Shown here in pieces: positions 3,808 through 41,583 of a stretch of DNA of 64,000 nt. The notes beneath the pieces are model-generated. The model made no database searches. It worked only from the letters and a program-made list of their open reading frames with translations, and was not told where the DNA came from. The stretch spans positions 451 to 64,450 of IMG/VR virus record IMGVR_UViG_3300033463_000114; one strand, written 5' to 3'. The number at the start of each line of letters is the position of its first letter. Position 1 is the first letter of the stretch. Made by a program: the position numbers and the translations under genes. This DNA comes from a virus. Its lineage: Duplodnaviria > Caudoviricetes.

Positions 3808-5835
3808 ATGGAAACGAAAGAGAGGTTAGATGAAATGAAACTGAACCTGGAAGAGATGCGGGAGATCGCCCGCACTCTGCCGATCGGGTACTACCTTGGA
3901 CGCAAGGTGCCCGTGTTCGTGGAGGACGACAACCGCGCATACTGCGATGTCATAAAAGGCGACGTCCACATCGGCGTGGGGCTCTTGCAGACTGCGGCGG
4001 ACCACATCGACGCGACTGACGCGGCGGAATGGGACCGCGAGACGCTTCTGCGGTGCCTGCTGTACCACGAAATCGGGCATCTACTCCTGACGCCGAAGTG
4101 GTACAAGGTGATCAGGGTCAAGAACGCCAACGGCAACAGCTACCGCGAGGAAAAGTCGAACACGATCCTCAACATCTTCGAGGACGAGCGGCTTGAGCGC
4201 ATATTGTCTAAGTATTTCATGGGGGTGAAGTTCAGAAAGTTCGTCAAGCTTGTCTGCAAGGGCGAGGGCGGCGGACGGAAGGACGACATCGCCAAGATAT
4301 ACCGGGCGATACGCCTCCGCGACGCGCCGAAAGACGTGTCGGATGCGGTTGACGAGGCGATCAAAAACCTCGCGTACATCATTTCGGTGACTGACGAGTG
4401 GGGCTTCAACCCGGATGGCAGGTACGTTTACAACATGGGGCTGTACTCCAAAGAGGTCAATGACCTTGTGGCGAAGATACTGGATTCCAAGGAGGAGTCC
4501 GGCGGCGGGCAGTCGCAGCAGTCGCAGGGGCGGTCGCAAGCGCAGTCGCAGGGGCAGTCCGAGCAGGAGCAATCCAAGCAGGACAGTCCCGAACAGCCCG
4601 CGCCGAAGGAGCAGTCCGAACAGGAGAAGCCCGACGGCGAGCAGAAAGACGAGCAGAAGGACGACAAGTCCGATGGCGAGTCCGATGACAAGCCCGACGC
4701 AGAGGATGATTCCAAAGCGGAGGAAAACTCCGGCGGCGATGGCGACGGCGACGACGGCAGCGACGGCGAGTCCGACAAGCCCGACGAAGAAGATTCCGAG
4801 GGCGACGAGGGCGACGGCGACGCTGACGGCGACGGCGAAAGTGAGTCCGACGGCGACGGCGACCAAGGCGACGGCGACCAAGGCGAGTCCGAAGAGTCCG
4901 ACGAGGATTCTGACGGCGGAGCAGATGGCGACGGCGGCGACGATGCCGACGATGCGGGCGGTGACAATGCCGACGGCGGCGTTGACGGCGACGCCGGTGA
5001 AGATGAATCTTCAGACGGCGACGCGACGGGCGACGATGCGGATGCGATCGACGCGGAGGATGCGGAAGATGCGGACGGCAAGACGGCGTGCGCCGTGAGC
5101 GGCGTGCTGACGCTTCCGCCGGAATACTTGAAGGAGGTCGCGGACAAGGTGTTCGCGACGCCGACAAGCGAAATCGAGAACGTCCTCCGCAGGTTCGCGC
5201 AGCGGATCGCGAAGCAGAAGGGAGCGCAGGCCGCCGGTCGGTGGTCCGCGCTGACCGGGCGCATCGACCCGAGGCGAGACGCGCAGGACAAGGACCGCAT
5301 CTTCCGCAGGAGCAGCGACGTCGGCGACGCAATCAACACCGCCGTACATCTCACCCTGTGGGTGGACACGAGCGGGTCGTTCTGCCGAAGCGTCCCGTTG
5401 CTGAACCAAATCCTCGCCGCGACGTACCGCGCGATGAAGATGAGCGGCGGCAAGCTGGACGTGGACGTGGTGAAGATGAACTACTTCGCCACGGTCGCAA
5501 GCACGAACGACTGGCAGATAGTGGCGCACGGAGGCAACAACATCAACCACACGTACGTCGACGCGTGGCGCAAGACCCGCAAGAAGAACAAGCGCAACAT
5601 CGACGTCGTTGTGTTCGACGGCGAGGCGTGCGGCTACTACGGGAACGCAACAAAGTTGTACATCGACGAAATCGTAAAGCAGATATGGGATAATCCCGAC
5701 TGCCACCTCGTCGTTGACCACACCAACGGCGATTGGACGGGCAAGTTGAAGCGGGCGCACGTTACGCTGTTGACAGGCAACTACGCGGAGAGCCTGCAAG
5801 CCGAGGTGATAAAGCTGCTGGACAGGATTCTGTGA
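3808..5835 (+). CDS. CobT-like vWA protein: HExxH metallopeptidase-like N-terminus, acidic linker, vWA C-terminus
   Basis: LYHEIGH, FEDERLE; ~200-aa D/E/G/S tract; MIDAS-like DTSGS and VVFDGE; adjacent to AAA+ gene. Confidence 0.85.
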   Translation: METKERLDEMKLNLEEMREIARTLPIGYYLGRKVPVFVEDDNRAYCDVIKGDVHIGVGLLQTAADHIDATDAAEWDRETLLRCLLYHEIGHLLLTPKWYKVIRVKNANGNSYREEKSNTILNIFEDERLERILSKYFMGVKFRKFVKLVCKGEGGGRKDDIAKIYRAIRLRDAPKDVSDAVDEAIKNLAYIISVTDEWGFNPDGRYVYNMGLYSKEVNDLVAKILDSKEESGGGQSQQSQGRSQAQSQGQSEQEQSKQDSPEQPAPKEQSEQEKPDGEQKDEQKDDKSDGESDDKPDAEDDSKAEENSGGDGDGDDGSDGESDKPDEEDSEGDEGDGDADGDGESESDGDGDQGDGDQGESEESDEDSDGGADGDGGDDADDAGGDNADGGVDGDAGEDESSDGDATGDDADAIDAEDAEDADGKTACAVSGVLTLPPEYLKEVADKVFATPTSEIENVLRRFAQRIAKQKGAQAAGRWSALTGRIDPRRDAQDKDRIFRRSSDVGDAINTAVHLTLWVDTSGSFCRSVPLLNQILAATYRAMKMSGGKLDVDVVKMNYFATVASTNDWQIVAHGGNNINHTYVDAWRKTRKKNKRNIDVVVFDGEACGYYGNATKLYIDEIVKQIWDNPDCHLVVDHTNGDWTGKLKRAHVTLLTGNYAESLQAEVIKLLDRIL

Positions 5836-5845
5836 GGCTAGGGTT

Positions 5846-5924
5846 TGAGACCGTGACACGGCGGGCACGGCGCGTGTTGAGCGTGCCGCGCCCGCCGCAT
5901 CACGTCCCAATTCCGGGATGCGGG
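5846..5924 (+). ncRNA. Structured RNA motif copy B (unknown family)
   Basis: Long hairpin then UCCC-N6-GGGA-UGC, as at 1016-1085. Confidence 0.4.
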
Positions 5925-5944
5925 AAACAGAAAGGACAAAGAGA

Positions 5945-6283
5945 ATGAAAGCGAAAGCGAAAGCGAAGAAGAAGCGGACGAAGTTCGTGGTGGCGTGGGC
6001 CGAGTACCTCGTGAATGAGCATAAGGACCAGCTCGGGTGCGGCGCGTTCCGCAGGACGTTTGACACTGCGGAAGGTGCGCACAGGGCAATCATGGATTCA
6101 ATCTACAACGACACACGGATATATCTTCAACAGCAGGTTGACGCGGAAATCATTGATCCAATCAAGGACGGCGACGTCGACGAGGTTGTCCGAGACGGGC
6201 TTTGGTACGACGATGTTGACCTCGTGAAGTTCACGACGCGCGACATCGAGTACGTGTATTGCGTACAGGAAATCGAGGTCTGA
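5945..6283 (+). CDS. Hypothetical early protein
   Basis: AGAAAGGA RBS, ATG 5945. Confidence 0.7.
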   Translation: MKAKAKAKKKRTKFVVAWAEYLVNEHKDQLGCGAFRRTFDTAEGAHRAIMDSIYNDTRIYLQQQVDAEIIDPIKDGDVDEVVRDGLWYDDVDLVKFTTRDIEYVYCVQEIEV

Positions 6284-6296
6284 AAGGAGGCAACCC

Positions 6297-6602
6297 ATGA
6301 GCATGAGCGGACACGTGCAGACGAAGCACGAGATTGAGTACGGCGGCTCCTACTTCGGGTGGAACCAGCCCGCGGTGTACGGATGGCTCGTCGAGCACGA
6401 CGCGAACGTGTGCAGCGACGAGAACAACGTGGAGTACGCGACGGAATGGGAGATTCCGAAGTCCGACCTCCGCAAGATTCCCGAGTCAGCGTTCGACGAG
6501 ATCGACGCCGACGGGGACATCGACGCGGACGAGCTTCGGGAGTTCGTTGAGGAGCTTCTTGAAGCGCCGACGGGCGAGTACGCCTACGTGTCGTGGTTCT
6601 GA
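6297..6602 (+). CDS. Acidic hypothetical early protein
   Basis: AAAGGAGG RBS; D/E-rich. Confidence 0.75.
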   Translation: MSMSGHVQTKHEIEYGGSYFGWNQPAVYGWLVEHDANVCSDENNVEYATEWEIPKSDLRKIPESAFDEIDADGDIDADELREFVEELLEAPTGEYAYVSWF

Positions 6603-6631
6603 CAGGAAACAACAAGCGAAAGGAGACAACG

Positions 6632-6940
6632 ATGAACATTGAGATACCGAAGAACACCTACTCGGTGGATGCAGACCCTGTTATTGCCGAGACGATAAAA
6701 AAGTGTATTGCAGAACTGTCAAAGTCTGACAATGCAGATATAATTCGCCATCCTCAAAATGATTGGCACAGGAAAAACAGGACTTGCGTTGACGATGACT
6801 ACATCGGGTTTGAAGTGTGCAAGCATTTTGTCATGGCTGGTTATCATGCCGCCGTGCAATCGTACCTTGGCATTGTGCAATACTTCGCCATATCAAAGAA
6901 GCCGATAGACAAGCGTCTTGAAAGGCACATCATCGGATAA
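6632..6940 (+). CDS. Hypothetical protein, lower GC than neighbours
   Basis: AAAGGAG RBS, ATG 6632. Confidence 0.7.
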   Translation: MNIEIPKNTYSVDADPVIAETIKKCIAELSKSDNADIIRHPQNDWHRKNRTCVDDDYIGFEVCKHFVMAGYHAAVQSYLGIVQYFAISKKPIDKRLERHIIG

Positions 6941-6964
6941 CAACCAACGAAAGGAGAAGCCAAG

Positions 6965-7321
6965 ATGGCAACTGAACACATCTACACCGTGTCGTCGCAC
7001 GACGACTGCGACGCGGGACTCGACCACTGCGTAGCCGGGAGCTACCGCACGCTCGACCGCGCCGTGGAGGAGTGCGTGAACTACATCCTCGAACGGCTCG
7101 ACGCCCGCGACGACCTTGCATGGGGGATGGCGAACGACGAGAACCACGAGGATGCGGGCAAGTTCTTCGGGGACGACGAGGACGGGTACTACTGCGTCAA
7201 GGACGAGGCCGGACTGCGCGAGTACCTCCGAGACGAACTTGAGTTGCAGCGGTGCTACTACGTCTTCGACGGGCAGGACGCGTTCCACTTCGACATCGAC
7301 GAGAACGACATCGAGGACTGA
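6965..7321 (+). CDS. Highly acidic early protein
   Basis: AAAGGAG RBS; D/E-rich with aromatic residues. Confidence 0.75.
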   Translation: MATEHIYTVSSHDDCDAGLDHCVAGSYRTLDRAVEECVNYILERLDARDDLAWGMANDENHEDAGKFFGDDEDGYYCVKDEAGLREYLRDELELQRCYYVFDGQDAFHFDIDENDIED

Positions 7322-7333
7322 AAGGAGCGCGAT

Positions 7334-7738
7334 ATGGGACAATGCTACAGCGTGACCCTCAAGGCCAAGCTCAAGGACGCCGACGCGTTCGTGAGGCTGA
7401 CGAGGGAGTTCGCGAACGGCTGGTCGCAGGACTACAAGGACAAGCTGACCGGCATCAACGGCATCATCAACTTCATCGTCGGTGATGGCAGCGTGGACGT
7501 ATGCTACGAGGACGGCTGGCCCGTTTTCCGCGGCGACTTCGACGCGCCGTATTCGTGGGACGGCGTGATGTCCGAGTGGTTCGAGGACGTCGCCCCGAGC
7601 CTCGTGGACGGCAGTTCGATCGAGGTTTGGCCCGACGAGGGCAGCTGGAAGCGCACGGTCGTGGGCGGCGAGGCGTCCGAGACGGAGTGCTGGGAGTGCG
7701 ACGACGAAGAGGAGGACGGCGATGGCGACGACGAGTGA
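7334..7738 (+). CDS. Acidic early protein
   Basis: AAAGGAG RBS; acidic tail. Confidence 0.75.
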   Translation: MGQCYSVTLKAKLKDADAFVRLTREFANGWSQDYKDKLTGINGIINFIVGDGSVDVCYEDGWPVFRGDFDAPYSWDGVMSEWFEDVAPSLVDGSSIEVWPDEGSWKRTVVGGEASETECWECDDEEEDGDGDDE

Positions 7739-7750
7739 CGCAGACATGAC

Positions 7751-7833
7751 GTAGCCGAAACGGCGCGGACATCCACGGACGTCCGCGCCGTCCTGGGTAG
7801 GGCGGCAACCTTCCAGCTTGACGATGGCAAGCC
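7751..7833 (+). ncRNA. Type II hammerhead ribozyme, variant core
   Basis: GCC-GAAA, 11-bp stem III, GUC cleavage triplet (7790-7792), stem I CUGG/CCAG, core C-UUGACGA, U-GGC stem II, loop I GGC complementary to 3' GCC. Confidence 0.65.
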
Positions 7834-7866
7834 AAACGAAACAACCAACAAGAAAGGAACGCAACA

Positions 7867-8046
7867 ATGAACGAACTGGGATTCAACTACAAGCCGTACC
7901 GCCTCGGGCGGTTCTACGACATCGGCATCTACATCCGCACGCCGAGCGGCGACCGCCTGAAGATGTTCGGCGGCAGGTACGCGACGCTCTCCGAGGCGAA
8001 GGCCGTCGCAAGGCGATTCAACGAGGAAACGGGGGTGGAGGCATGA
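7867..8046 (+). CDS. Hypothetical protein (59 aa)
   Basis: Manual translation; AGAAAGGA RBS; ATGA overlap. Confidence 0.65.
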   Translation: MNELGFNYKPYRLGRFYDIGIYIRTPSGDRLKMFGGRYATLSEAKAVARRFNEETGVEA

Positions 8047-8306
8047 AAGCAAGACTGACGATAGACATTGACGCAGACGACGTTCCGGCCGTCGTCGAAC
8101 ACGCACTGTCCGACTTGCGCTGGTCGCTCTTGAACAAGGGCAGCAGCAACGAGATCGGACGCCTATGGGCTGAGGCGCAGTCAAGCGGTTGCGACATCGC
8201 GATGTGCTTGAACGCAGGCCGAGGATGGGACGCTCAGTTCGTGATGACGACGCGGCAGGACATCGGCATGGCCGTTGAGTTCGTGAAGGAAGGAGAAAAC
8301 GAATGA
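8043..8306 (+). CDS. Hypothetical protein
   Basis: Coupled start/stop on both sides. Confidence 0.65.
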   Translation: MKARLTIDIDADDVPAVVEHALSDLRWSLLNKGSSNEIGRLWAEAQSSGCDIAMCLNAGRGWDAQFVMTTRQDIGMAVEFVKEGENE

Positions 8307-8692
8307 TACTTGAAATGGAGAACCACTGCGACAAGTGCGACGCCGTGATCGAGTCCGAGTGCAAATACGACGAGTTCGTCCGCCACAGGGTCGGCCGCGT
8401 CGTCTGCCCGAACTGCGGACAGGTGAACAAGCCGTGCAACGAGTGCATGGACCATTCGGACTGCGACAACTGTCCGTATGAATCCGCTGGCATCGTTAGC
8501 AGTTTGGACGAAGCGCCGTGCGCCAATGCGATTGAGCGATACCGCCAAGGCGTCATCACCCTTGAGGAGCTGGCTACCAAGGTGAAGGCGTGGGCGAACG
8601 GCATCATCAAGGCGGTGCGCGCCGAGCGGCGCGCGATCCTCGCCGAGTTGCGCAAGGGCGAGGGCAAGAAATCGAAAGGAGCGGGCAAATGA
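8303..8692 (+). CDS. Zn-finger-rich hypothetical protein
   Basis: Four CxxC pairs. Confidence 0.7.
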   Translation: MILEMENHCDKCDAVIESECKYDEFVRHRVGRVVCPNCGQVNKPCNECMDHSDCDNCPYESAGIVSSLDEAPCANAIERYRQGVITLEELATKVKAWANGIIKAVRAERRAILAELRKGEGKKSKGAGK

Positions 8693-8928
8693 AAATCGAA
8701 ACCGATACGTTCTATGTCGTGGCGAACATCAGCGGCGGCCACCGCAACCCGACATTCGCACATCAGATTGGAACCGGCACGACCGATGCGTGGGGAGACG
8801 CCGCAACCGCGGACCGCTTCGATACGCGAAAGGAGGCAGAAGCCTTCATCCGTTCGGAGTTCGAGAAGGATTGCCGTCGCCGGTACAGGCCGATGCGCGT
8901 CAGGATTGACATGAGACTCTACAACTAA
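8689..8928 (+). CDS. Hypothetical protein
   Basis: AAAGGAG RBS, ATGA overlap. Confidence 0.65.
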   Translation: MKIETDTFYVVANISGGHRNPTFAHQIGTGTTDAWGDAATADRFDTRKEAEAFIRSEFEKDCRRRYRPMRVRIDMRLYN

Positions 8929-8944
8929 CGAAAGGAGAAAACCA

Positions 8945-9232
8945 ATGAGAATAGTAACCCAAACGACCACCCGCTACTTCCCCGACGACCCGAAGAACAA
9001 GGTGTTCTCCGTGGATGTCTACGTCACCGTGTGCAAGTGCTACAAGATCGAGGCGAAGGACGAAAAGGAGGCGGAGGCGAAGGCCGAGAGCGAGCTGGTC
9101 GACGCCGGACGCGGCGCCGACGATGCGACCTACATCCACAACCTTGCCGACCGTGGGTTCCAAGACGCCGAGGAATCTGAAACCCGAGTCTCCGGCGAGG
9201 CCGACGAGAACGGCGAAATCCAGTATTACTAG
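8945..9232 (+). CDS. Small acidic protein with IEAKDEKEAEAKA motif (DpnD/PcfM-like)
   Basis: AAAGGAG RBS; motif resemblance. Confidence 0.6.
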   Translation: MRIVTQTTTRYFPDDPKNKVFSVDVYVTVCKCYKIEAKDEKEAEAKAESELVDAGRGADDATYIHNLADRGFQDAEESETRVSGEADENGEIQYY

Positions 9233-9257
9233 CCCCAAAGGAAAGGACAAGAAAAAA

Positions 9258-9497
9258 ATGAAAACACCGAAAGAAGTTGCCGCCGACATTGTGTATCAGT
9301 ATTCGTTCGTCCTGAACACGCCCGACTATCGAGGCAAGAACGTGACTGGGGCGGAGTTCGCAAAGCTAATCGCAGAAGTGTACGATGTTTCCATCCACGG
9401 CGCAAATCACTACGCCGCCATCATCGCGGAGGACTACATCGCAAGCATACGCCACGCCGCATCGGGCCGCGTTACTTGGAAGTTCAAGGAGGCGTGA
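9258..9497 (+). CDS. Hypothetical protein
   Basis: AAAGGA RBS, ATG 9258. Confidence 0.6.
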   Translation: MKTPKEVAADIVYQYSFVLNTPDYRGKNVTGAEFAKLIAEVYDVSIHGANHYAAIIAEDYIASIRHAASGRVTWKFKEA

Positions 9498-9498
9498 C

Positions 9499-9678
9499 AT
9501 GGCAGACAAAGTGTTCGTCGCAATCATCATGCCGCACCTTTGCGGCATCCAGGACTTGAGCATCCGCCTCTTCTCGTCGATCGTCTCGGCGCAGATGTGG
9601 GTGGACGAGGCGCTTGCCGACTACGAGCATGACGGCATCGAGGTCAACTGGGACATCCAGGAGTACGGTGTCCTGTAA
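9499..9678 (+). CDS. Hypothetical protein
   Basis: AAGGAGG RBS. Confidence 0.6.
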   Translation: MADKVFVAIIMPHLCGIQDLSIRLFSSIVSAQMWVDEALADYEHDGIEVNWDIQEYGVL

Positions 9679-9698
9679 GCAAACAGAAAGGAGACAAC

Positions 9699-9899
9699 AT
9701 GAGAATCTACGCAATCTACCACGTCCTCGAACAGACGTTCATCAAGTGGGGCGTCAACGGCGGAGGCAAGGAGGGCTACTGCCTGCTCCGTGGCAAGCCG
9801 TGCTTTTTCAAGACGCTTGCGCTTGCACAGAGTGCGGTGCAGTCGTTCGACAACCCCGATAACTACGAAATCTGCGTGTTCGAGGAGGTGCACGAATGA
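9699..9899 (+). CDS. Hypothetical protein
   Basis: AGAAAGGAG RBS. Confidence 0.65.
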   Translation: MRIYAIYHVLEQTFIKWGVNGGGKEGYCLLRGKPCFFKTLALAQSAVQSFDNPDNYEICVFEEVHE

Positions 9900-10099
9900 A
9901 GAAGTACACCATCCGCCTTGAGCGCGAGGAGTTTTACGAGATCGTCGTTGACGTGGTTGCCGAGAGCGAGGCCGAAGCCGTGACCGAAGTCGAGCGCAGG
10001 CACGACGACGGCGAGTTTTGGAACAGGATGAACAAGGACGGGCCGTACGATTCGAGCGAGCACATCTACTGCGTGAGCGAAAGCGAGGTGCCAGCATGA
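9896..10099 (+). CDS. DpnD/PcfM-like small protein
   Basis: MKKYTIRLERE...VDVVAESEAEAVTEV pattern. Confidence 0.6.
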   Translation: MKKYTIRLEREEFYEIVVDVVAESEAEAVTEVERRHDDGEFWNRMNKDGPYDSSEHIYCVSESEVPA

Positions 10100-10416
10100 A
10101 ACTGAATCTAGTTGCGGATTACACGGTGCCCGGAACGGGCGGGAAGCGACATGTAGTCACGCTCTGCATTGACGGCAGCGCCAATTTGATGGGGCTGATC
10201 GACATGGCGACGTTGAACTTCCCCACCGATTTGGGAGAATTCGAGAAGGTTCGCCCCAAAACGCTCACGATGTGCGAAAGCGGGAAGAAGGCGGAAGCGG
10301 TCGCTACGAGTTGGAGAAGCAACTACAAGAGCGACGGGCGGCTGTGGGACTATTCGCCCATTGACGCTTATCAGGCGTACAAAGAATCGGAAGAGGGAAG
10401 CGAGGTGCCGGCATGA
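10096..10416 (+). CDS. Hypothetical protein
   Basis: GAGGTG RBS, ATGA overlap. Confidence 0.65.
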   Translation: MKLNLVADYTVPGTGGKRHVVTLCIDGSANLMGLIDMATLNFPTDLGEFEKVRPKTLTMCESGKKAEAVATSWRSNYKSDGRLWDYSPIDAYQAYKESEEGSEVPA

Positions 10417-10574
10417 AGAAGAAGTACATCGTGCACACCCACCTCGGCGACATGCAGACCGAGGCCGCCACCCCGGCCCGGGCCAAGTCCAACATCCAGT
10501 TCAAAATCTTCCGCAGGTCGCCCGCCGCGAAGCGGTACACGAGGACGTGGACCGTGAGCGAGGCGACGAGCTGA
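10413..10574 (+). CDS. Small protein (53 aa), paralog of 1282 and 27053 products
   Basis: Manual translation MKKKYIVHTHLGDMQTEAATPARAKSNIQFKI...WTVSEATS. Confidence 0.6.
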   Translation: MKKKYIVHTHLGDMQTEAATPARAKSNIQFKIFRRSPAAKRYTRTWTVSEATS

Positions 10575-10604
10575 ACAAGACAACCCCAAAGAAAGGAGCA
10601 ACCA

Positions 10605-11009
10605 ATGAAGTTCAATGACGTTATGACCGCGCTGTACAAGGACGGCGTGTCTCTCCCGATCGTCAACCGCATCGAGTGGCTGTCGAGCGAGTTCGCCACG
10701 AAGGAGGCGTTCTTCCTGGCGTCCAAGGGCGACTTGCTCGCCGCGTTCGCCAGGATGTGTCCCGACGCGAAGCGCGACCTCGGCGACAAGTTCTTCGCCG
10801 CGATGTCCAAGGCCGTGGTGCTTTGGAAGACGCCAGACGACAAGCCCGCCGCAAGGCCCAGCCACGCAACGCCCGAGCGCGACCCGCGCCTCGACGAAAC
10901 GCTGACCAACGCGGAGGTGCTTCTCGTCGCAGAGCTGATGGAGCGGTTCAAGAAAACGGAGGTGTCCGTCGACTGGATTCTCCAGCAGGTGAAGCTCGCA
11001 AGGGCGTAG
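10605..11009 (+). CDS. Hypothetical protein
   Basis: AGAAAGGAG RBS. Confidence 0.7.
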   Translation: MKFNDVMTALYKDGVSLPIVNRIEWLSSEFATKEAFFLASKGDLLAAFARMCPDAKRDLGDKFFAAMSKAVVLWKTPDDKPAARPSHATPERDPRLDETLTNAEVLLVAELMERFKKTEVSVDWILQQVKLARA

Positions 11010-11028
11010 CTGGCGGCTGAAAACAATT

Positions 11029-11070
11029 CCGCATTTGCCACTTGTCAACAGGTGGCAAATGCGGTATGAT
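11029..11070 (+). promoter_or_regulatory. Sigma70-type promoter TTGTCA-17-TATGAT inside a 13-bp inverted repeat
   Basis: -35 at 11042-11047, -10 at 11065-11070; arms 11029-11041 and 11052-11064. Confidence 0.7.
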
Positions 11071-11106
11071 CTGAAGCAAAACAAACAACCAAAAAGGAAA
11101 TGAAAA

Positions 11107-11304
11107 ATGAAAGAGTCATACGAACAAAAAGTTGCGACGTTTAATCAGGCGGCAGGAGCGCGGTACTCGGCAGAGGTGCGTTTCCTCACATTCCGCCGGA
11201 CGCGCAAGGGAATCAAGGTTGGTTATACGTTGGCAAAACGCCATGAGATTGCCGACCTTCAAGCGTATGTCATGCGTGCAGGAGAACCGTACTATATGGC
11301 CTGA
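11107..11304 (+). CDS. Hypothetical protein
   Basis: AAAAAGGA RBS downstream of promoter. Confidence 0.6.
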   Translation: MKESYEQKVATFNQAAGARYSAEVRFLTFRRTRKGIKVGYTLAKRHEIADLQAYVMRAGEPYYMA

Positions 11305-11342
11305 ACACACAGATACAAACAACCAACGAAGGAGAATGAAAA

Positions 11343-11606
11343 ATGAAAATGAAATTCATGTGCGACGGTTGCCGTTCCGTGATTCGCGACGGCGACGAGG
11401 GTTTTGACGCTGGCGAGTATTTCGCCGGTGTCATGGCGAGACGCGAGTATGGTCGGCGCGGCCATGTCGGCCCGTGCCGTCTGGAGTCGTGGACGGAGGA
11501 CGGAACGTGCGGCGAATACGAGGCGTTCATTGGCGTATCAGACGGCAACGGAATGACTGGCAAAAACATTCGCTTTTCCGTCATCACTGAACGGGTTGAA
11601 GAATGA
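11343..11606 (+). CDS. Hypothetical protein
   Basis: AAGGAG RBS. Confidence 0.6.
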   Translation: MKMKFMCDGCRSVIRDGDEGFDAGEYFAGVMARREYGRRGHVGPCRLESWTEDGTCGEYEAFIGVSDGNGMTGKNIRFSVITERVEE

Positions 11607-29011: not shown

Positions 29012-29505
29012 ACAAGACACAGTTTATGAACATCGACACGGGCGAGAAGACATGGCTCACGCCGCCCGAAATCATCGACGCGCTCGGCCCGTTCGACCTC
29101 GACCCGTGCTGTCCGCCGACGATGCCGTGGCGCACCGCAGCGCAGATGGTGCATTGGCCGAACGACGGATTGAAGGTGGATTGGACGGGCAAGCGCGTGT
29201 GGTGCAACCCGCCATACGGACGCGACGCCGTGCCGTTCCTCCGCAAAATGGCGGAAAACAAGACGGGGGGGGGTATTTTGCTTATATTCGCGCGGACGGA
29301 CACCGCCGCGTGGCAGGACTGGATATTCCCGCACGCAAGCGGCGTTCTATTCCTTCGCGCGAGGCTGCGCTTCCACAGGCCCGACGGAACGCAAGGAGAG
29401 ACGGCTTCCGCGCCGTCTGCGCTCGTCGCGTACTCGGAGCGGGACTTCGTGCGTCTGCGCGAGAGCGGGCTTAGAGGGGCGTTTTTGCGCGTCTCACGCG
29501 ACTGA
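29008..29505 (+). CDS. Phage N6-adenine methyltransferase (phage Dam family)
   Basis: WLTP, FDLDPC, WCNPPYG, LIFARTDT, FLRARLRF. Confidence 0.85.
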   Translation: MNKTQFMNIDTGEKTWLTPPEIIDALGPFDLDPCCPPTMPWRTAAQMVHWPNDGLKVDWTGKRVWCNPPYGRDAVPFLRKMAENKTGGGILLIFARTDTAAWQDWIFPHASGVLFLRARLRFHRPDGTQGETASAPSALVAYSERDFVRLRESGLRGAFLRVSRD

Positions 29506-30741
29506 CGCGCTTGGCATGATCTTGAAGTACGCCTCGCCGTCCTTCTTCGTCGCGAGCCCGCAGTAGTTCTCCGCGCGCATCTTGTCGCTCGTGCCCACCA
29601 TCGCCGTGGTCTTCGCAGGGTCGCCATACGCCGCGACGTGGTACGTGATGAACGTGTGCCGCCCGCAGTTCTGGAACATCGGCACGCCGTTCGCCCGCGC
29701 AAGCTCGTAGATTTCCTTCTGCGTGTCGCGCGTCACCTTCGCAAGCGCGCCGATGAACCCGAACGACTTCATCCATGCAAGGGCCGTCGGGTGGATGTGG
29801 AATGCCCTTGGCTTCTTGCCCTGCTGAAATCCCTTCGCCTTCGCGATGCGGACGGTGGCGTTCTCGACGTCGATCTTCGCCGCGTCTGGGTCGCTCGCCA
29901 TGCGCACAACCTCGACTGCGCGGCAACCGCAGAAGAAGTTGACGATGGCGTAGGCGAGGAACTCCGGCCTGTCGGACTTGTGCGCCTCGAGCAGCCGGAA
30001 CAGCTTCTCCACGTCCTCCGGCTTCATGTACTCCGGCTCCTCCCACGGCTCAGGCTTGTCCGCCAGCGAGCGGATCGGGCTTTTCACGAGGTACTCCCGC
30101 TCGTCCTTGCAGCACCAGTTGAAGAACACCTTGAGGTAGAGCAGGTGCGAGTTGTAGGTCTTCGGCTTGCGCTTGCCGTAGTTCGCCTCAAGGTAGTCCG
30201 CCACGTCCTTCGCGGTGATGGACGCCAGCTTCCGCGCGCCGAACGTCTCCGCCCACTTGCCGACCTTTGCGATGGCGCTGTCTCTGTCGGCGTTCACGTC
30301 ATCCGGGTCGCGAATCCCGCTCGGCAGTTTCCTCGGGAACCCGCCGTACTTCTTCTCGATGTACTCGACGTACACCTCCTGCACGGTGCGCTCGCAGTTC
30401 GCCTTCGCGACGGCCAGCCCGCCGATGTACGCCGTGACCGCCTCGCAAAGCGTGACGTTCATTCCCGCGTTCGCGAGCGCGTCGAGCGCGCCCTTCGCGT
30501 CGATGGCCTGCATCGCGGTGAGCCGCACCGCCGCGTCGCCGCCGACTTGGTGGCGCTGGTAGAAGTCCTTCAGCGCGGCGAGGAGTTCGTCCATGTCTGC
30601 GCGCGTTATCCGCACAGGCTTACGGTCGAACGGATCCACGCCGAGATACGCCTCGAAGTCCGTGTGCGTCCTGCCGTCGCGGCCCTTGCGCTTCCGCGTC
30701 CTGATGTTTTCCTCGACCATTCTCTTGGGTAGGTATGCCAT
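29494..30741 (-). CDS. int: Tyrosine integrase
   Basis: GCRAVE (R), KAKG (K), NCGRH (HxxR equivalent), ENY (Y); start trimmed to GAGG-preceded ATG. Confidence 0.85.
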   Translation of the reverse strand: MAYLPKRMVEENIRTRKRKGRDGRTHTDFEAYLGVDPFDRKPVRITRADMDELLAALKDFYQRHQVGGDAAVRLTAMQAIDAKGALDALANAGMNVTLCEAVTAYIGGLAVAKANCERTVQEVYVEYIEKKYGGFPRKLPSGIRDPDDVNADRDSAIAKVGKWAETFGARKLASITAKDVADYLEANYGKRKPKTYNSHLLYLKVFFNWCCKDEREYLVKSPIRSLADKPEPWEEPEYMKPEDVEKLFRLLEAHKSDRPEFLAYAIVNFFCGCRAVEVVRMASDPDAAKIDVENATVRIAKAKGFQQGKKPRAFHIHPTALAWMKSFGFIGALAKVTRDTQKEIYELARANGVPMFQNCGRHTFITYHVAAYGDPAKTTAMVGTSDKMRAENYCGLATKKDGEAYFKIMPSASVA

Positions 30742-30825
30742 GTCACGCCTCTTTTCATCTTTGTGAATCGCTTGTGAAACGGAAAATCGCACCGTGCGAA
30801 AACCTTTTCAGAAGCGAACGCGGAC

Positions 30826-31164: not shown

Positions 31165-34100
31165 TTATTTCCCGAGAATCCGCAAGACCTCCGCCTGCAA
31201 TCGCAGACGTTTCTCGTGCGCCTGCTTCACCTCGTCGTCTGTTAGCGGGACGTTCTTCTGAACCCACTCACCTCTGTCGTTCTTCTTCATCCCGTTCTCG
31301 CGGTGGCGAAGCCTGTCTATCTGGTCCACTAGTTCGTCAAGGCGCGTCCGCTGAACGGAAAGGTAAGGCATCTTTTCCTTCATCGCCTTTCTGTCCGCTC
31401 CTGCGCCGAGCTTCTTGTACCGCTTCTTCGCGGACCTATACTCCTCTATGGCGTCGAAATATCTTCCCGACGAATCAGGGTATTCCTTCACGACGGACTT
31501 CACCATCGGCATCTGGCTCAACGTCCTGTCGGACACGTCGCCGCTCAACAGCTTCTTCGCGTTGCCGACGGTGTTGACTGCGCCCATGACGTCGCGGCCA
31601 AGACCGCCTGCGAACGTCTCGACCAGAAGCGAAATGTCCTCCGGTGCGAGGTTGATGAGCCCGGGCTTCAACTTGTCGCCGCCAGTGACGTCGTTCAAGA
31701 CCTGCGCGACCTTCTTCACGATCGGCGACGTGCTGTCCTTGCCGTTGTACGCAAGAGGAGCATTGTCATCGAACGACATCTTTCTACGTCTTTCGCCCCG
31801 CCAGTTCTTGCCTGTGGCAAGCTGACCCATAGTGTCAAGCGCAGACGGAAGCAATGTTTGAGCGAGGTTGTGCCAGTCGGAGCCTGTGAATCTTTGTCCA
31901 CCGACGATCCCAGCCGCCTCGCCTTCAAGCGCCTCTGCAATCGCCATTGTCGCGTCGCCCCAGCTCGTGTCGCCGAGCGAAGCCTCCGTGATCTTTGTCG
32001 CCATGTACGGTATTACGGCGTCGAGGCCGCGCATCTTCAGTAGCTGCAATTCGGCCTTGTTGCCGAGCGGTATGCCTATCGACGTCTGCTTGTAGTAGTC
32101 AGGTGCGTTCCTCGCGTTGCGCCCGCCGTCGTTCTCCCCGTTCTCGTCGTCGTCCTTCCCGCCGACGTAATGTCTGTACATCGCGGCGAGCGATGCGGCA
32201 AGCGCTAACGTCACAGCCATCTGGATGCCGTGTTTGTCGCGCAGCGACTGGAAGTTCCGCTTCAAGCCCTGCACGTTCGCGTTGTAGTACATGTACAAGC
32301 TCCCTATGACGGGCGCGTATGCCCCGCGCCTGTTGAAGTTCGTCGTTCCCTCTCGTGCGAACCGCACCGCGTCGGCCACGCTCACGCCGCTGTCGCGCAA
32401 CGCGCTGAATATCGCGGCGCGGGTGTTCAGCTCCGCGATCTCGTTCATCGTCGAGTTGAACCTGCCGATGCTTGAGAAGAGCCGCATTGTCATCTCTGGC
32501 TTCCACGTGCCGAGCAAGCTCTGCTTGAACGACCTTGCCTCTCGTTGGTAACGGGCGAGGTTGTCCTTGAGAACCTTGCTCTCCTCCGCATATCCGTGTG
32601 CAAGCACGCCGCCCTTTATCTGTCCGCCTGCGTCGATGAACTCCTTGAACCGCGTTCCCGGCGTCAGCTTTCCGTCGACGATCCAATCCTTCACGTACTT
32701 CCTTCCGGTGAACGTGGCCGCGTGCATCTTCGCCGCTATTTTAGTTCCATCGCGGATACCGTACCTCGCGGACAATGCGCGCCACGCCTCGTTGCGGTCG
32801 TTTATCACGTTGCTGAACAGGAACGACGGCGACGCGGAGGTGTTCATCCGAGACAAATACCCGGTGAACTTCGGGATGTACGTGTACCGCAGCCAATCCG
32901 GCACCTTGGCCATGTTCGTCTCGTTTATCTCCTTCGCGATGGCAAGCCCCCTGCCGTTCGCGCCGGGGTTGAAGCGGATTACGTAGAGGCGCGACTGCTC
33001 CTCGAACTTTCCGGTCGGCTTTCCTTTCTTGTCAAGCAGCTCGACTCTCTCGGGCCGCTTGAACAGGACGAGGTTGCTCTGGTTCGACGCGAGCTGCATG
33101 TCGCCGCCAATTCTCGCCTTCGTGCCGTCTGCAAACGTGGCCGCGAACTCCGTGCCGCCGTGCTTCACGACCTCCGCCGGGACGATCTCCGCGACGCGGT
33201 ATTCCGTCCGCGTCGATTTCGTCTTCGGGTCGGTGATCTGCACGGAGTTGAGCCCCTTCGACTCCAAAAAGTCGACCCAGTTCGCTGCGACGTTGCCGGT
33301 CATGTTCTTGGCCGCGCCCTGTATGCCCTGCCCGGCCTGAACGAACGCGAACGTGAGCGGCGAGTCTGCGATGTTGTCCGCGCCGCGTCCTTTGGACGTG
33401 ATGAACTCGTTGCGCTTCATGCCGGCGGTGGATGAATTGAACCGCTCCTCCAGAGAGTTTCCGGCCGTCACGTCCGTCTTCAGCGGCACGTAGTGCTTCC
33501 ACCTGTTCGCGTAGAAGTCGTACTGGTCTTGCGAGAGGCGCCCGGATTCAAGCCTCTGCCGGAGGTCGTCCTGCACGACGTCATGGACGATTTTCTCGAT
33601 GGAAGTGAGCGCCGACAGATTATTGCGCACTTCCGACGACGCAAGGAACTTGCCCGCCCATTCCGTGCTGACGCCGGCGCCCTCCGCGTAGGTCGGCGTC
33701 CACGCGTCGCCCCTGCGCGTGGCGATGGTCCTGTTGCGCTCCTCGGCGTGCAACGCGAGAAGGTACTTGTCTACAAGCTCTTCAGATATGCCGTTGTCCG
33801 CCATGATGCGCGAAATCTTATCATATCTTTTCTGTAGGATGTGGTTGTGCTTCTGCACGTAGCCGTTCAACTTGTCCATCATCTGGTCGACGTTCACGGT
33901 CGTCTTGCTCCAGTCCGTCTTGCCCGTGACCGGGTTCTTGTGCTGCCGCCAGTCGAGGAAGCCTGTCTTCGGGTCGATAACCTCGCGCGTCGCGCCAGTG
34001 CGGTCAAGTTCTTTGCGGAGGAGGATGCGTGCGTCGTCAAGCCGTTCGCGTGCCTTCTCGCCTCTGGTCACCACGTCGTCCATGAAGTTTGCGCCCGGCG

Positions 34101-37100
34101 CCGCCGGCCCGCGCGCCATGCGGACGGAGGACTCGCCAGCCTCGGCGCCGCGCTCACCGATGAACGCCTTGCGGAGCTTGTTCCCGATTCCCTCCCCGCC
34201 CTGCGTCTCAAGCCTCCCGAGCGTCTTGCCCCCGATCATCGCCTTGTCCAAGAACTCGTTGAACTCGTCCGGCGTCATCTTGTCGATGCCGGAAAGGTCT
34301 GCGCGGTTGAAGCCCATGCGGGACAGGATTCCACGCCACGCGGTCTTGATCGCGTCCCACGCGCGGTTGTACCACTTCCGCCCCTGCAAGGTCTTGACGT
34401 ACTTCTGCATGGTCTCGGACGGGCGCTCGCGCAGCGCGGCCCATATCTCGTCGCGGAGCGCGGCCTCGTCCGCGTCGGGGTATCGGCTGCGCACCTCGTC
34501 GGCGAGCGGCGTGTCCATCGCGCCGTCTACCGCCTCGTTGATCTTGTCGAGGAGCGCGCGGTTGCCGCGTGCGGCCTCCTGCTCCGCGTAGCGCATGGTC
34601 GCGTGGCCGAACTCGTGGTTGAGGGTCTTCCAGTTCGCGCCGCGGAAGAGCTTGAGCTTGCCGGTGTCGCGGTCGAAGATGCCGAGGACTGTACCGGTGT
34701 CGCGGTCCTTCAACTCCCTGCCTCCGTTCGGGTTGTCCTTCGCGGGGTCGTAGTCCCTGTCGCCTACGTACTCGACGTCCACGCCGCGCACGGCGTTCTT
34801 GAACGCGTCGCCGAGGGCCTTGGCCTGCTCCATCTCGTACCGCTGGCGCAGCGGCTCCGCGTCGTTTGCCTTGCGGGACTTTAGCCACCGCTGGTAGTCG
34901 GCGTCGGCTGCGAACTTGGCGTCGCGGGAGGCGGAGGACTCTGGGGCCAGCTTGGATGCGCGTATTTCTTCTCCCTTTTCAAGAGAATCAAGAGCCTGCT
35001 TTATGTCTGGGTCTGATTCCGCGAGCTCCCTCAACTGGCTCAACTTGACGGTCTGCTTGATTACGCCTTTCTTCGGAACGCGCATGGCTACGGTTATGTC
35101 GTCGCCGTTGCGTTCCACAATCTGAAACTTCCTTTTGCCTGAAAGGCTCCCGCCCTTGCCCGTTGAGCCCTGCCGCGTCCCCTCCGTGCCGGTCGTGTCA
35201 TTGTCGGATTCTTTCGTGAACCCCTTGCCGTACGACTCGCCGGGCTTCAAAGTCCTCCTGTCGTGCGAGCTACCTGAAATCTCGTCTGCAACGTCCTCAA
35301 GCGTCCTTCCGTCCGCTCCGACGTCAACCGTGCCGTCCTTGGTGTCAAGCGATACGGTCTTCCCCCTGCTCCCTCTGCGCCTGTCCGAGCCGTCAAGCTG
35401 CGTGTGGAGCTTCCTCCCTTTCGCGGAACGGTTGAACTTGTCAACGTCCTCCTGCGTGACTGCATCCACTACGGGCTTTATCACTTCCAGCGCTTCGCGC
35501 AGGCGCTTCGCGGCCTCGGCCCTACCCTCGCGCTCCGCCTTCTCCAAGCCTTCGGAAATCTTGCCGTTCAGCGGCACGGCGTCCTTCGGAGACAACTTGC
35601 CGGCCTTCGCCTTCTTCACGGCGTTGTCAACCTGCACGAAGAAATGCGCCATTTCGCTGTCGGTCTTGGCTCGCGCCACCGCGTCGCGGAGGTTCTTCGC
35701 GCTCTCCGAGTCGACGCCAAGCGAGTTCTGCCACTCCGCGTCCGTCACGAGCGGGGTGAAGAACCTGGCGGAGCGGTTGTGCTTCACCTCCGGCGATTCG
35801 GCGATGCCGTTCACGATGGCGTCGGCCTCATCGGGCGTGATCGCGCCCTTGCCGGTGCGGTTGCCGATGGCGGAGGCAATCCGCTCGACGGCTCCGCGCA
35901 GCGTCTTTTTCATATTGCCGTTCTTGTCGCGGAACTGGGAGGCGGGCTGGGTCTGCTCGTCTGCGGTCGGAGTGGTGGTTGTGGTGGCTTCGGGCGTCGC
36001 CTCCTGCGTCGCGGGCGCGGCGGGCGCTGCGTCGGCCTTGGGAGCCGCGTCGGCCTTGGGCGCGGAGTCTGCCTCCGCCTGCGTGCGGAGCTTCGGGGCG
36101 GGCTTGGTTTGAATCTCAGAATCTGTCTGTGTTCCGAATCTCTCGTCCGCAACGCTACGCGTAACTTCTTCAATCGCCTTGATCACATATTCGTCTTTCG
36201 CGCCCTTGTAGTATCTCCCAGACGAAACCTTGTCAGCCAAGGTTTTCAGCGCCTTGTCGTTCAACTTTGATATTGCGTCGCGCCATGTGTTGCGCATTTT
36301 TTCAAGGAAAGAACTTCTCCCAGACGTAGTGAAAAAATGTGCATCAGACTCCATGAACGACACGATGTCTCTAATCGGCCTTTCCAGCTTTGACAAACCG
36401 TTGGACGTATTCAGCTTTGTGGCTGGACGCAATTTGCTCCCCTGCGTCGGCTTCGGCTCTTCCGCCGCGCCGCCTGTCGCGCCGCCAGCCGCCGATTCCG
36501 CGCCATGCACGGGCTCCGCGCTTTGCGGAGGCGTAACCGTGCCCTCCTCGCGCGGCGCGCTTGCAGGGGCGTTTTCCGGCGGTTCCGCGGCGGGCGGTTC
36601 AGCCTGCGATCGCACGCCGTTGGCCAAACGCTTCCGCTCCGCGAGAGTAAGCGTCTCTTTCATGCCCGCCGACGAGATGTCATCCATCGGCACGGTGCGC
36701 GTCTCGACCTTCTCCGGCGCGTAGCGGTTCGCGCCGGGCGTTCTCACCTGCACATCTGCCGTGCCGTCGGCGTTGGCTTTCAGGAACTTGACGCGCTGGC
36801 CGTCGGACGCACCTTTGAGCATCACGCTGTCGCCGCGCTTGAACGCGGGCTTGGCCTCCTCCTTCGCGCCTCCTGTCAATTTTTGACCACCCATGTCAGA
36901 TTTTGACACGGGGTTCTGCGCGACAGGATTCTTTGCGGTCTTACGCGCCGCGCCGATGTTGGGAGAGTCCTCGCGCTCCGGGAGTCCGTCCGTCACTTCC
37001 TCCCCCGTCCAATACACGGTTCCCAGTCCGCCGCCTTCGCCCTTGTTCGGGCGCATGCGCAGCTCCGGGTTCCTGATTATCGTGCCGTCTCCCTTCTTCA

Positions 37101-40053: not shown

Positions 40054-41583
40054 TTACTTCACACCCCACCGTGCGCGGGCTTCGCGGACCTGTGGCGTGA
40101 CTTCATTCTGCTCGGCTTCTTCGGCGAGTCCAACGTCCCTGTCTTCTCCGCTAGAAGCACTTCCGACAACGGACTCGCCGCCACCTACATCCTCACCACC
40201 ACCAGCGACACCAATAGGACTCGCCGGCTCGTCTTCGACCTCGCGCCCAAGTTTCTCCGACGCGGCAATCCGCGCGCGCACTTCCGCGTCGCTAATCGGC
40301 GTAACGCCGCTCAATTCCTTCCCGTAACTGTCATAGAGCTTCCCGCCAACGACATAGCCGTTCGTCGAATACTGCCTCCCGTCGGTGCCGATGTAGTGTA
40401 TGAGCTGCTGCTGGCGTCCGTCGGTCACGTTGCGCTCGGATCGCGCCTCCGTCCGAGCCGCCTGTTCGGGGAACGCCATCCTGAAAACGCGCTCGGCGAG
40501 CTTCATCCGCTGTTCGATCGGGTCCACGGACGGTGCGCCTTCGACCTGCTGTTGGTTCTTAAACCTCGGGTCCATGTTGACGAACTCCTCCACTCGGCTT
40601 TTAATAAGCGCGAGATCGTCTGGATTGTTCATGTCGAGAGGCGTTTCTACCATCTTCTCCGTATTTGGGTCCATCTTTTGAGGCCCGCGCATTATGCTCT
40701 TGAAAGAACTGTTTGTCGTCAATAGCCTCTGTATGAACTTTCCGCGCAGCTCGTCCATGTCAACGCCCTTGCCCGACTTCTTCGCGTCCTTTATCAACTG
40801 CGTGCCGATGCTCGTGACGAACTTCAACTTCGCGGCGTTTTCCTGCTGCCTCTGGCGCTCTTTGTTCACGCCGCGCATCTTGTCGAGCATAACTCCGAAC
40901 TGCGCGGGATCGCGAAGCGTTCCCTTGCGGTAGTTGTTGCGGAGCGACGCGTACAGCTCGTCAACGTCGTTCTGCCCCCACACGCCGGGCGCGCTGAACA
41001 TCATGTTGTACCTCTGCTCCGGCGTAATCGTCATCGCGTTGCGGACAATGGAGCCATTACGCCCTTGCTCGGCGACTTCTATCACAAAATTTCCGTCCTG
41101 CGTATAGCCACCGCCGTAAATCGCACGCGACTTCCCGTCGAATCCGAAGTCTCGGTTCATCTGGTCGATGACGTTGCGCGGGATTCTCCCGCCGTTGTAC
41201 TTCGCGATTTTCATTACCGAATTGGCCGCCGAGGACATCAACTGCGCGTTGTGCTGCTTCGCCGCGGCAGCGCGCCTTCCAAGGTCTGCATATTGGCTGT
41301 ACACGTTGTTTTGAGCCATAGCATCGTCCCACATCGCGCCCCATCCATCGCGCGACACGGAGCCATCCGGCCCGATGACCGTGTTGCTGAACGTCTGAAC
41401 CACTCCGTCAGGGCCGACGTATATGCGCGACACGCTCCCTCCGCGCCTGTTGCGCTCGGCCCGGCGTGCCTCGTCGAACGCCGCGTAGTTCGCCTCCTTG
41501 ACGCGGCGGGCGCGTTCGCGCTCGATCTGCTCGTCCTGTATCTTCGCGATCGTCTGCGGCATCGCATAGTCCATTCCTCTCAT
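40054..41583 (-). CDS. Internal virion (ejection) protein
   Basis: AAGGAGG RBS; position before giant protein; helical, Q/A/R-rich. Confidence 0.6.
   Translation of the reverse strand: MRGMDYAMPQTIAKIQDEQIERERARRVKEANYAAFDEARRAERNRRGGSVSRIYVGPDGVVQTFSNTVIGPDGSVSRDGWGAMWDDAMAQNNVYSQYADLGRRAAAAKQHNAQLMSSAANSVMKIAKYNGGRIPRNVIDQMNRDFGFDGKSRAIYGGGYTQDGNFVIEVAEQGRNGSIVRNAMTITPEQRYNMMFSAPGVWGQNDVDELYASLRNNYRKGTLRDPAQFGVMLDKMRGVNKERQRQQENAAKLKFVTSIGTQLIKDAKKSGKGVDMDELRGKFIQRLLTTNSSFKSIMRGPQKMDPNTEKMVETPLDMNNPDDLALIKSRVEEFVNMDPRFKNQQQVEGAPSVDPIEQRMKLAERVFRMAFPEQAARTEARSERNVTDGRQQQLIHYIGTDGRQYSTNGYVVGGKLYDSYGKELSGVTPISDAEVRARIAASEKLGREVEDEPASPIGVAGGGEDVGGGESVVGSASSGEDRDVGLAEEAEQNEVTPQVREARARWGVK

Follow-up and report, generated by a model that had tools for sequence, protein, structure and literature searches.

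On comparison with its homologs, the intergenic element at positions 7752–7836 (plus strand) of this phage genome is by descent a type II hammerhead ribozyme (Rfam family Hammerhead_II, RF02276). It carries an additional U in the catalytic core, and we hold with middling confidence that it retains cleavage, probably slowed, at C7792 of an early polycistronic mRNA; most likely, the additional U would slow the reaction without abolishing it. Complete loss of useful self-cleavage is nearly as likely. Because the core departs from strict CUGANGA and the score lies below the Rfam cut-off, we class the element as a variant and not as a plain member of RF02276.

Genomic context and anatomy of the element

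The window, i.e., the whole stretch of 64,000 nt that was analysed, covers nearly all of a 64,450-bp IMG/VR virus record that bears direct terminal repeats and whose source is an uncultured gut or rumen phage. Its GC content is about 60%, and the first 30 kb are filled by plus-strand genes. The element lies downstream of a gene for a 134-aa acidic protein (7334–7738, plus strand, in the list of open reading frames) that ends with the TGA codon at 7736–7738. It is followed by an A/C-rich leader (7836–7866, plus strand), which contains the RBS-like sequence GAAAGGAA at 7852–7859, and by the ATG (7867) of a gene for a 59-aa protein (7867–8046, plus strand, in the same list), which is conserved in the related locus L004. 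This confirms a first-pass annotation of this DNA, which had placed the element after a stop codon and ahead of the RBS that follows. Leaders like that of the window also follow the hammerhead in L004, L005, L033, L068 and L074. A scan of positions 5500–11500 revealed no terminator-like or strong promoter-like site between the flanking genes. The 134-aa protein has 17 relatives with 58–91% identity and no match among the PHROGs. The small acidic early proteins around the element, which the first-pass annotation flagged as possible anti-restriction candidates, recall the published link between hammerheads and ardA. Farther along, on the minus strand (29494–30792 and 31165–40029), this genome, itself flanked by direct terminal repeats, has an integrase-like gene (PHROG 1) and beside it a 2,953-aa protein that matches giant phage proteins (phrog_14770).

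All parts of the predicted fold are located on the plus strand, and the coordinates initially proposed for GCC-GAAA, stem III, GUC, stem I, the core, GGC and the tail proved exact base for base. Stem II is formed by GCC (7754–7756) and GGC (7826–7828). Its 5′ strand is followed by the core residues G12 A13 A14 (7757–7759) and by the hairpin of stem III (7760–7791), where 7760–7770 pair with 7781–7791 over 11 bp, from A15.1 (7760) to U16.1 (7791), with two further pairs past an A·C mismatch. The cleavage triplet GUC occupies positions 7790–7792; by homology to the GUH triplet, the predicted cleavage site C17 corresponds to C7792, with scission between 7792 and 7793. The 24-nt hairpin of stem I (7793–7816) starts with CUGG (7793–7796) pairing with CCAG (7813–7816) and reaches 8 bp with U7798 bulged, leaving the 7-nt loop GCGGCAA. 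The next core strand, CUUGACGA (7817–7824), comprises C3, U4, one extra U (7818 or 7819) and G5 A6 C7 G8 A9, and another extra U (7825) is placed between A9 and G10.1. In the 3′ tail AAGCCAA (7829–7835), GCC (7831–7833) pairs with GGC of loop I (7804–7806), so the pseudoknot suggested between loop I and the 3′ GCC also holds, with 3 bp in the window. The topology is that of type II, with an open stem II and loops capping stems I and III. The residues G12 A13 A14, the A15.1–U16.1 pair and H17 (C7792) are all present, and the strict core CUGANGA is interrupted by the insertion. The hairpin of stem III (7760–7791) is more regular on the minus strand, where the A·C mismatch becomes G·U and 16 consecutive pairs are formed; no minus-strand gene or function is evident at these positions.

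The search of the whole window with Rfam at gathering cut-offs gave no match. At a loose threshold, the element produced a full-length match (1–66 of 66) to RF02276 with 19.1 bits, compared with the cut-off of 37 (E = 0.008, for this genome and one family), and the match takes in the consensus 3′ tail AGCCaAA, which had played no part as a criterion in the first-pass annotation. The covariance-model check that had been recommended for Hammerhead_II thus gave a hit, but one under the Rfam cut-off. This low score is partly the cost of the long stem III and the bulged stem I. A score of about 19 bits alone is no proof, since a chance-looking RF02276 hit with 19.4 bits, having GAAG, GCC and many broken pairs, exists in a relative. 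Similarly, the bare linear motif CGAAAC..GTC..TGANGA is not beyond chance, because three occurrences were seen in the window against 1.08 expected. Taken together, it is through the full-length RF02276 match, the homologous copies in relatives and the covariation over 28 sequences that the assignment goes beyond chance. No further type II hammerheads were found in this genome; the R1 matches at 41460–41532 and 2785–2860 are weak (16–18 bits) and lie inside coding sequence.

Copies in related contigs and the subfamily

Scans with a protein alignment of the acidic protein retrieved the relatives L004 (91% identity), L005 (66%) and L033/L058 (55%). In L004, the element occupies the identical intergenic site and has the canonical core CUGACGA with GGC directly next to it. 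The window and L004 are 96% identical across the element, and their cores differ only by the two inserted U's. The element is missing from the orthologous site in both L005 and L033. In L033, a copy was found approximately 570 nt upstream of the homologous gene (L033:2355–2433, the same as L060:1501–1578); it has wholly different stems I and III, the triplet GUU, the core CUGACGA and, as in the window, a U before GGC. Neither the L004 copy (27.1 bits) nor the L033 copy (28.4 bits) reaches the gathering cut-off of RF02276 (37 bits), and the same is true of the window. After a three-sequence MAFFT alignment had misaligned L033, a covariance model was built from the window and L004; it detected a copy at L005:3722–3806 with 79.9 bits and the core CCGACGA (U4C). 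Where L004 and L005 both have a G-C pair in stem I, the window has U-A (7794/7815). The most parsimonious account places both substitutions, which together restored the pair, on the lineage of the window and suggests that the pairing was still under selection there. That the copies in L004, L005 and L033 are unrelated is excluded by the alignments. The canonical ortholog in L004, together with the covarying subfamily described below, upholds the initial identification of the element as a variant type II hammerhead.

The related phage contig L058 (ONVK01000004.1; 57 kb) was assigned to a metagenome-assembled genome from the rumen that is labelled uncultured Lentisphaerae bacterium RUG673; this binning gives a weak hint, being either a pointer to the host group or an accident. 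Searched singly for related loci in IMG/VR, the flanking proteins returned nothing, and the 747-aa neighbour protein returned two remote loci and no more. An exact 17-mer of the element had 15 matches in IMG/VR, all of them due to chance. BLAST of the region against GenBank phages gave no match, and the element alone gave weak partial matches only. Weak BLAST matches to half a subfamily hammerhead were observed in Geobacillus virus E3 (138440–138475) and Salisaeta phage SSIP-1 (10668–10699). Both are located in unannotated intergenic DNA of isolated phages and could be further type II hammerheads.

We further searched IMG/VR with a pattern that describes only the frame of the element (GCCGAAACG, 40–70 nt, GACGA, 0–1 nt, GGCAAGCCAA) and leaves positions 3–4 and both stems free. 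As a result, 36 matches were obtained in 34 IMG/VR stretches, whereas well under one is expected by chance, given 24 fixed bases and at most ~10^11 bases searched. The matches, the window and its relatives yield 28 unique sequences in all. Within the five core-proximal pairs of each of stems I and III, 277 of 280 cells contain standard pairs, compared with 23–56% when the 3′ partner is slid by 1–2 nt. For stem III, pairs 1–5 are standard in 138 of 140 cells, with two to five pair types at positions 4–5, and stem I shows four to six pair types at each position over the 28 sequences. Stem III ranges from 4 to 14 bp and varies freely in sequence, whereas the core, the spacing, the loop I motif and the tail are fixed. 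For example, stem I with its loop spans 23–24 nt in all 28 sequences and has the 7-nt loop NNGGCNA, and at H17 27 sequences have C and one has U. Independently, RNAalifold on a plain MAFFT alignment recovered the hammerhead three-way junction, with compensatory double changes in 11 of 17 pairs. Stem II is invariant and unable to covary because the search pattern fixed it. The tail was likewise fixed by the pattern, and covariation of the pseudoknot was read by eye, only in other type II copies; across the subfamily, the pseudoknot has 3–6 bp at a constant place.

The core strand is CUGACGA in 25 sequences (including L004), CCGACGA in two and CUUGACGA only in the window. Of the 28 sequences, 21 have an additional nucleotide between A9 and G10.1 (G in ten, U in nine and A in two) and seven have none; such a nucleotide is also found in RF02276 hits above the cut-off. 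Three subfamily members, L084, L090 and L089, score 38.4–40.3 bits, above the Rfam cut-off of 37, and a range of 37.8–52.5 bits was obtained for several subfamily sequences and other type II hammerheads in their contigs. The subfamily, which is widespread in phages, can be written as GCC-GAAA / stem III / GUC / stem I with loop NNGGCNA / CUGACGA-(N)-GGC-AAGCCAA. The U4C change (CCGACGA) was observed twice independently, with unrelated stems (L005:3722–3806 and L074:1545–1614), suggesting that it is tolerated in these pseudoknotted type II hammerheads; on this evidence, position 4 is comparatively tolerant in the subfamily. With its optional U, A or G after A9, the U4C change seen twice and the pseudoknot of 3–6 bp, the subfamily frame provides a clean covarying set of 28 sequences for tolerated junction nucleotides.

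The additional U in the core

The first-pass annotation had noticed one extra pyrimidine in the core, and this corresponds to the U at 7818/7819. The resulting CUUGA is a singleton, confined to the window among the 28 unique sequences, and does not represent a conserved variant class. A targeted scan for other CUUGA variants of the frame returned a single match, due to chance and located within coding sequence shared by three related contigs. U7825, in contrast, is not anomalous and is a common feature of the subfamily. The alternative offered initially, a U3:G8 wobble with C7817 as an overhang of stem I (as in the Rfam alignment), is ruled out by homology to L004, in which the flanks are identical and this C is C3. 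The inserted U creates a competing helix, GCUUG (7816–7820) with CAAGC (7828–7832). The hammerhead fold is the minimum free energy structure in L004 and L033 and, because the inserted U completes this helix, lies 1.8 kcal/mol above the minimum in the window.

An extra U in the catalytic core implies that this copy may cut slowly or not at all. Retained but slowed cleavage, the reading that we prefer, agrees with the intact state of the rest of the core, of the spacing and of the tail, as well as with the tolerance at position 4; the departure from strict CUGANGA, the singleton U, the competing helix and the pseudoknot of 3 bp count against it. In this scenario, the ribozyme would be transcribed within the early polycistronic mRNA and would fold during transcription, stem III first and stem I second, after which the core would be closed by stem II, with its 3 bp, and by the pairing of loop I with the tail. 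The 2′-OH of C7792 would then attack its own 3′ phosphate. The upstream product would be the mRNA of the acidic-protein genes, ending in the GC-rich hairpin of stem III with a 2′,3′-cyclic phosphate, and the downstream product would start at C7793 with a 5′-OH and the stem I hairpin, some 60 nt upstream of the RBS that serves the 59-aa gene. Each half of the operon would thereby get a stability of its own, with the acidic-protein genes uncoupled from the following genes. Such a role has been proposed for phage hammerheads but is unproven.

It is also quite possible that the element descends from a working type II ancestor in which the extra U abolished useful self-cleavage, so that a passive hairpin or nothing remains, with the second U and the weak pseudoknot perhaps adding to the loss. 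The occurrence of CUUGA in only one of 28 unique subfamily sequences is what a recent mutation, possibly a deleterious one, would be expected to show. In addition, the core of the window has two single-U insertions within 9 nt relative to L004 and L005, and the competing helix leaves the hammerhead fold no longer the minimum free energy structure. Published core insertions are strongly deleterious: A6a and 2a/2b beside C3 were associated with low activity or with a need for ~300 mM Mg, whereas U13a was tolerated (PMC3088659). A dead ribozyme is less easily reconciled with the double compensatory change in stem I on the lineage of the window, which suggests continued selection, or with the otherwise intact core, spacing and tail. 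Moreover, U7825 is normal in the subfamily, and the two cases of U4C mark position 4 as tolerant.

We consider it doubtful that the extra U constitutes a working, so far undescribed variant of the core with a U-turn expanded by one nucleotide (C3-U-U4-G5), the activity of which might be tuned by the competing helix. If an expanded U-turn of this kind works, cleavage of the early mRNA would be partial or conditional. The window and L004 represent a natural near-isogenic pair and a ready-made test of the cost of a U-turn insertion at physiological Mg.

An assembly or sequencing error, with the real core being canonical CUGACGA in an ordinary and active ribozyme, appears improbable. The insertion lengthens T to TT, and this state is found in one assembly only; however, in a block of 715 nt aligned to L004 with 93% identity, every indel within coding sequence has a length divisible by three, which gives no sign of an indel-prone assembly, and indels of 1–2 nt are confined to the intergenic element and the leader.

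Finally, a GC-rich terminator, processing or promoter hairpin flanked by chance by GAAA and UGANGA-like words is highly improbable and, on the comparative evidence, in effect refuted: although the bare linear motif occurs about once per window by chance, the Rfam score is under the cut-off, a chance-looking hit of similar score exists elsewhere and the hairpin folds better on the minus strand, stem III varies freely over the 28 relatives around a constant core, spacing, loop I motif and tail, no T-run follows the hairpin and L004 has a canonical ortholog. More specifically, an intrinsic terminator and a single-strand promoter hairpin were both rejected, given that no T-run lies past 7791, that the scan of 5500–11500 gave no site at this place and that stem III differs freely from relative to relative. 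The idea of a halovirus whose core insertion is rescued by salt was likewise rejected. The large proteins have pI values of 6–9 and are not acidic and the relatives come from gut or rumen samples, which makes salt rescue unlikely; moreover, the saltern hammerhead HHmeta is of type I and has its insertion on the opposite side of C3.

Relation to known hammerheads and associated RNA elements

The RF02276 family comprises the pseudoknotted type II hammerheads found in bacteria, prophages and phages (Perreault et al. 2011, PMC3088659). The same paper describes gene-flanking phage hammerheads with activity in vitro and in E. coli, as well as core variants that are slow (PMC3088659). Since 2011, type II hammerheads have been known to lie between genes of phages, and the element itself is therefore ordinary. 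It shares with RF02276 the open 3-bp stem II, the hairpin stems I and III, GAAA, the A15.1–U16.1 pair, GUC, the pseudoknot between loop I and a tail just 3′ of stem II, the tail AGCCAA and the intergenic location in a phage operon. The differences are the core CUUGACGA instead of CUGANGA, with 19.1 bits against the cut-off of 37, and a pseudoknot of 3 bp, whereas those of the family mostly have at least 4 bp (PMC3088659).

The closest likeness for an insertion near C3 is provided by HHmeta and HHphage from a saltern (Perreault et al. 2011), which carry a natural insertion in the C3 region that is otherwise unprecedented; HHphage is also located just upstream of an early viral gene, as is the element of the window. 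However, HHmeta, which was judged to be of type I from primers, has its insertion of 1–2 nt (2a, 2b) 5′ of C3, whereas that of the window is 3′ of C3. Furthermore, HHmeta and HHphage belong to hypersaline viruses and need very high Mg. Natural U4C variants of hammerheads, mentioned in the discussion of PMC3088659, are changed at position 4 of the U-turn, as are L005 and L074 here; they are substitutions, whereas the window has an insertion beside U4. For U7825, a likeness is found in the CChMVd (+) hammerhead, in which one extra nucleotide separates A9 from G10.1; citing De la Pena and Flores (2001), the review PMC3376415 reports only a moderate decrease of cleavage in vitro. Both have one extra nucleotide at the junction of A9 and stem II; in that account, however, it concerns a type III viroid ribozyme and a single case, whereas here it is subfamily-wide (21 of 28).

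Several contigs possess multiple copies. At least six type II hammerheads were identified in one 112-kb IMG/VR contig (L066: 1665–1738, 3006–3087, 4060–4154 and 7221–7295; L084: 1461–1537 and 3211–3289), and at least six in one 47-kb contig (L089: 608–676, 1480–1548 and 1732–1800; L090: 6147–6220, 7957–8023 and 8785–8854). These multi-copy contigs match the hammerhead arrays described for prophages in 2011 (PMC3088659). Among the unique subfamily members, 13 have a conserved sequence of ~60 nt (UAGCCGUAGCAGGGAUAGAGUGAAAAAAUAGCAG...) after the hammerhead instead of an RBS and ATG. It is present, for example, in L065 (416–493, minus strand, and ~70 nt downstream) and likewise in L067, L069, L070, L072, L077, L081, L082, L083, L086, L088, L092 and L098. 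This downstream sequence may be a second structured RNA; in the loci searched, it matched no Rfam family at its cut-off. Finally, a sub-threshold but significant match to the HEARO RNA (RF02033; 50.9 bits, cut-off 83, E = 2e-7) was obtained at L010:4737–4996, in a contig from the human gut whose genes include one for a distantly related acidic protein.
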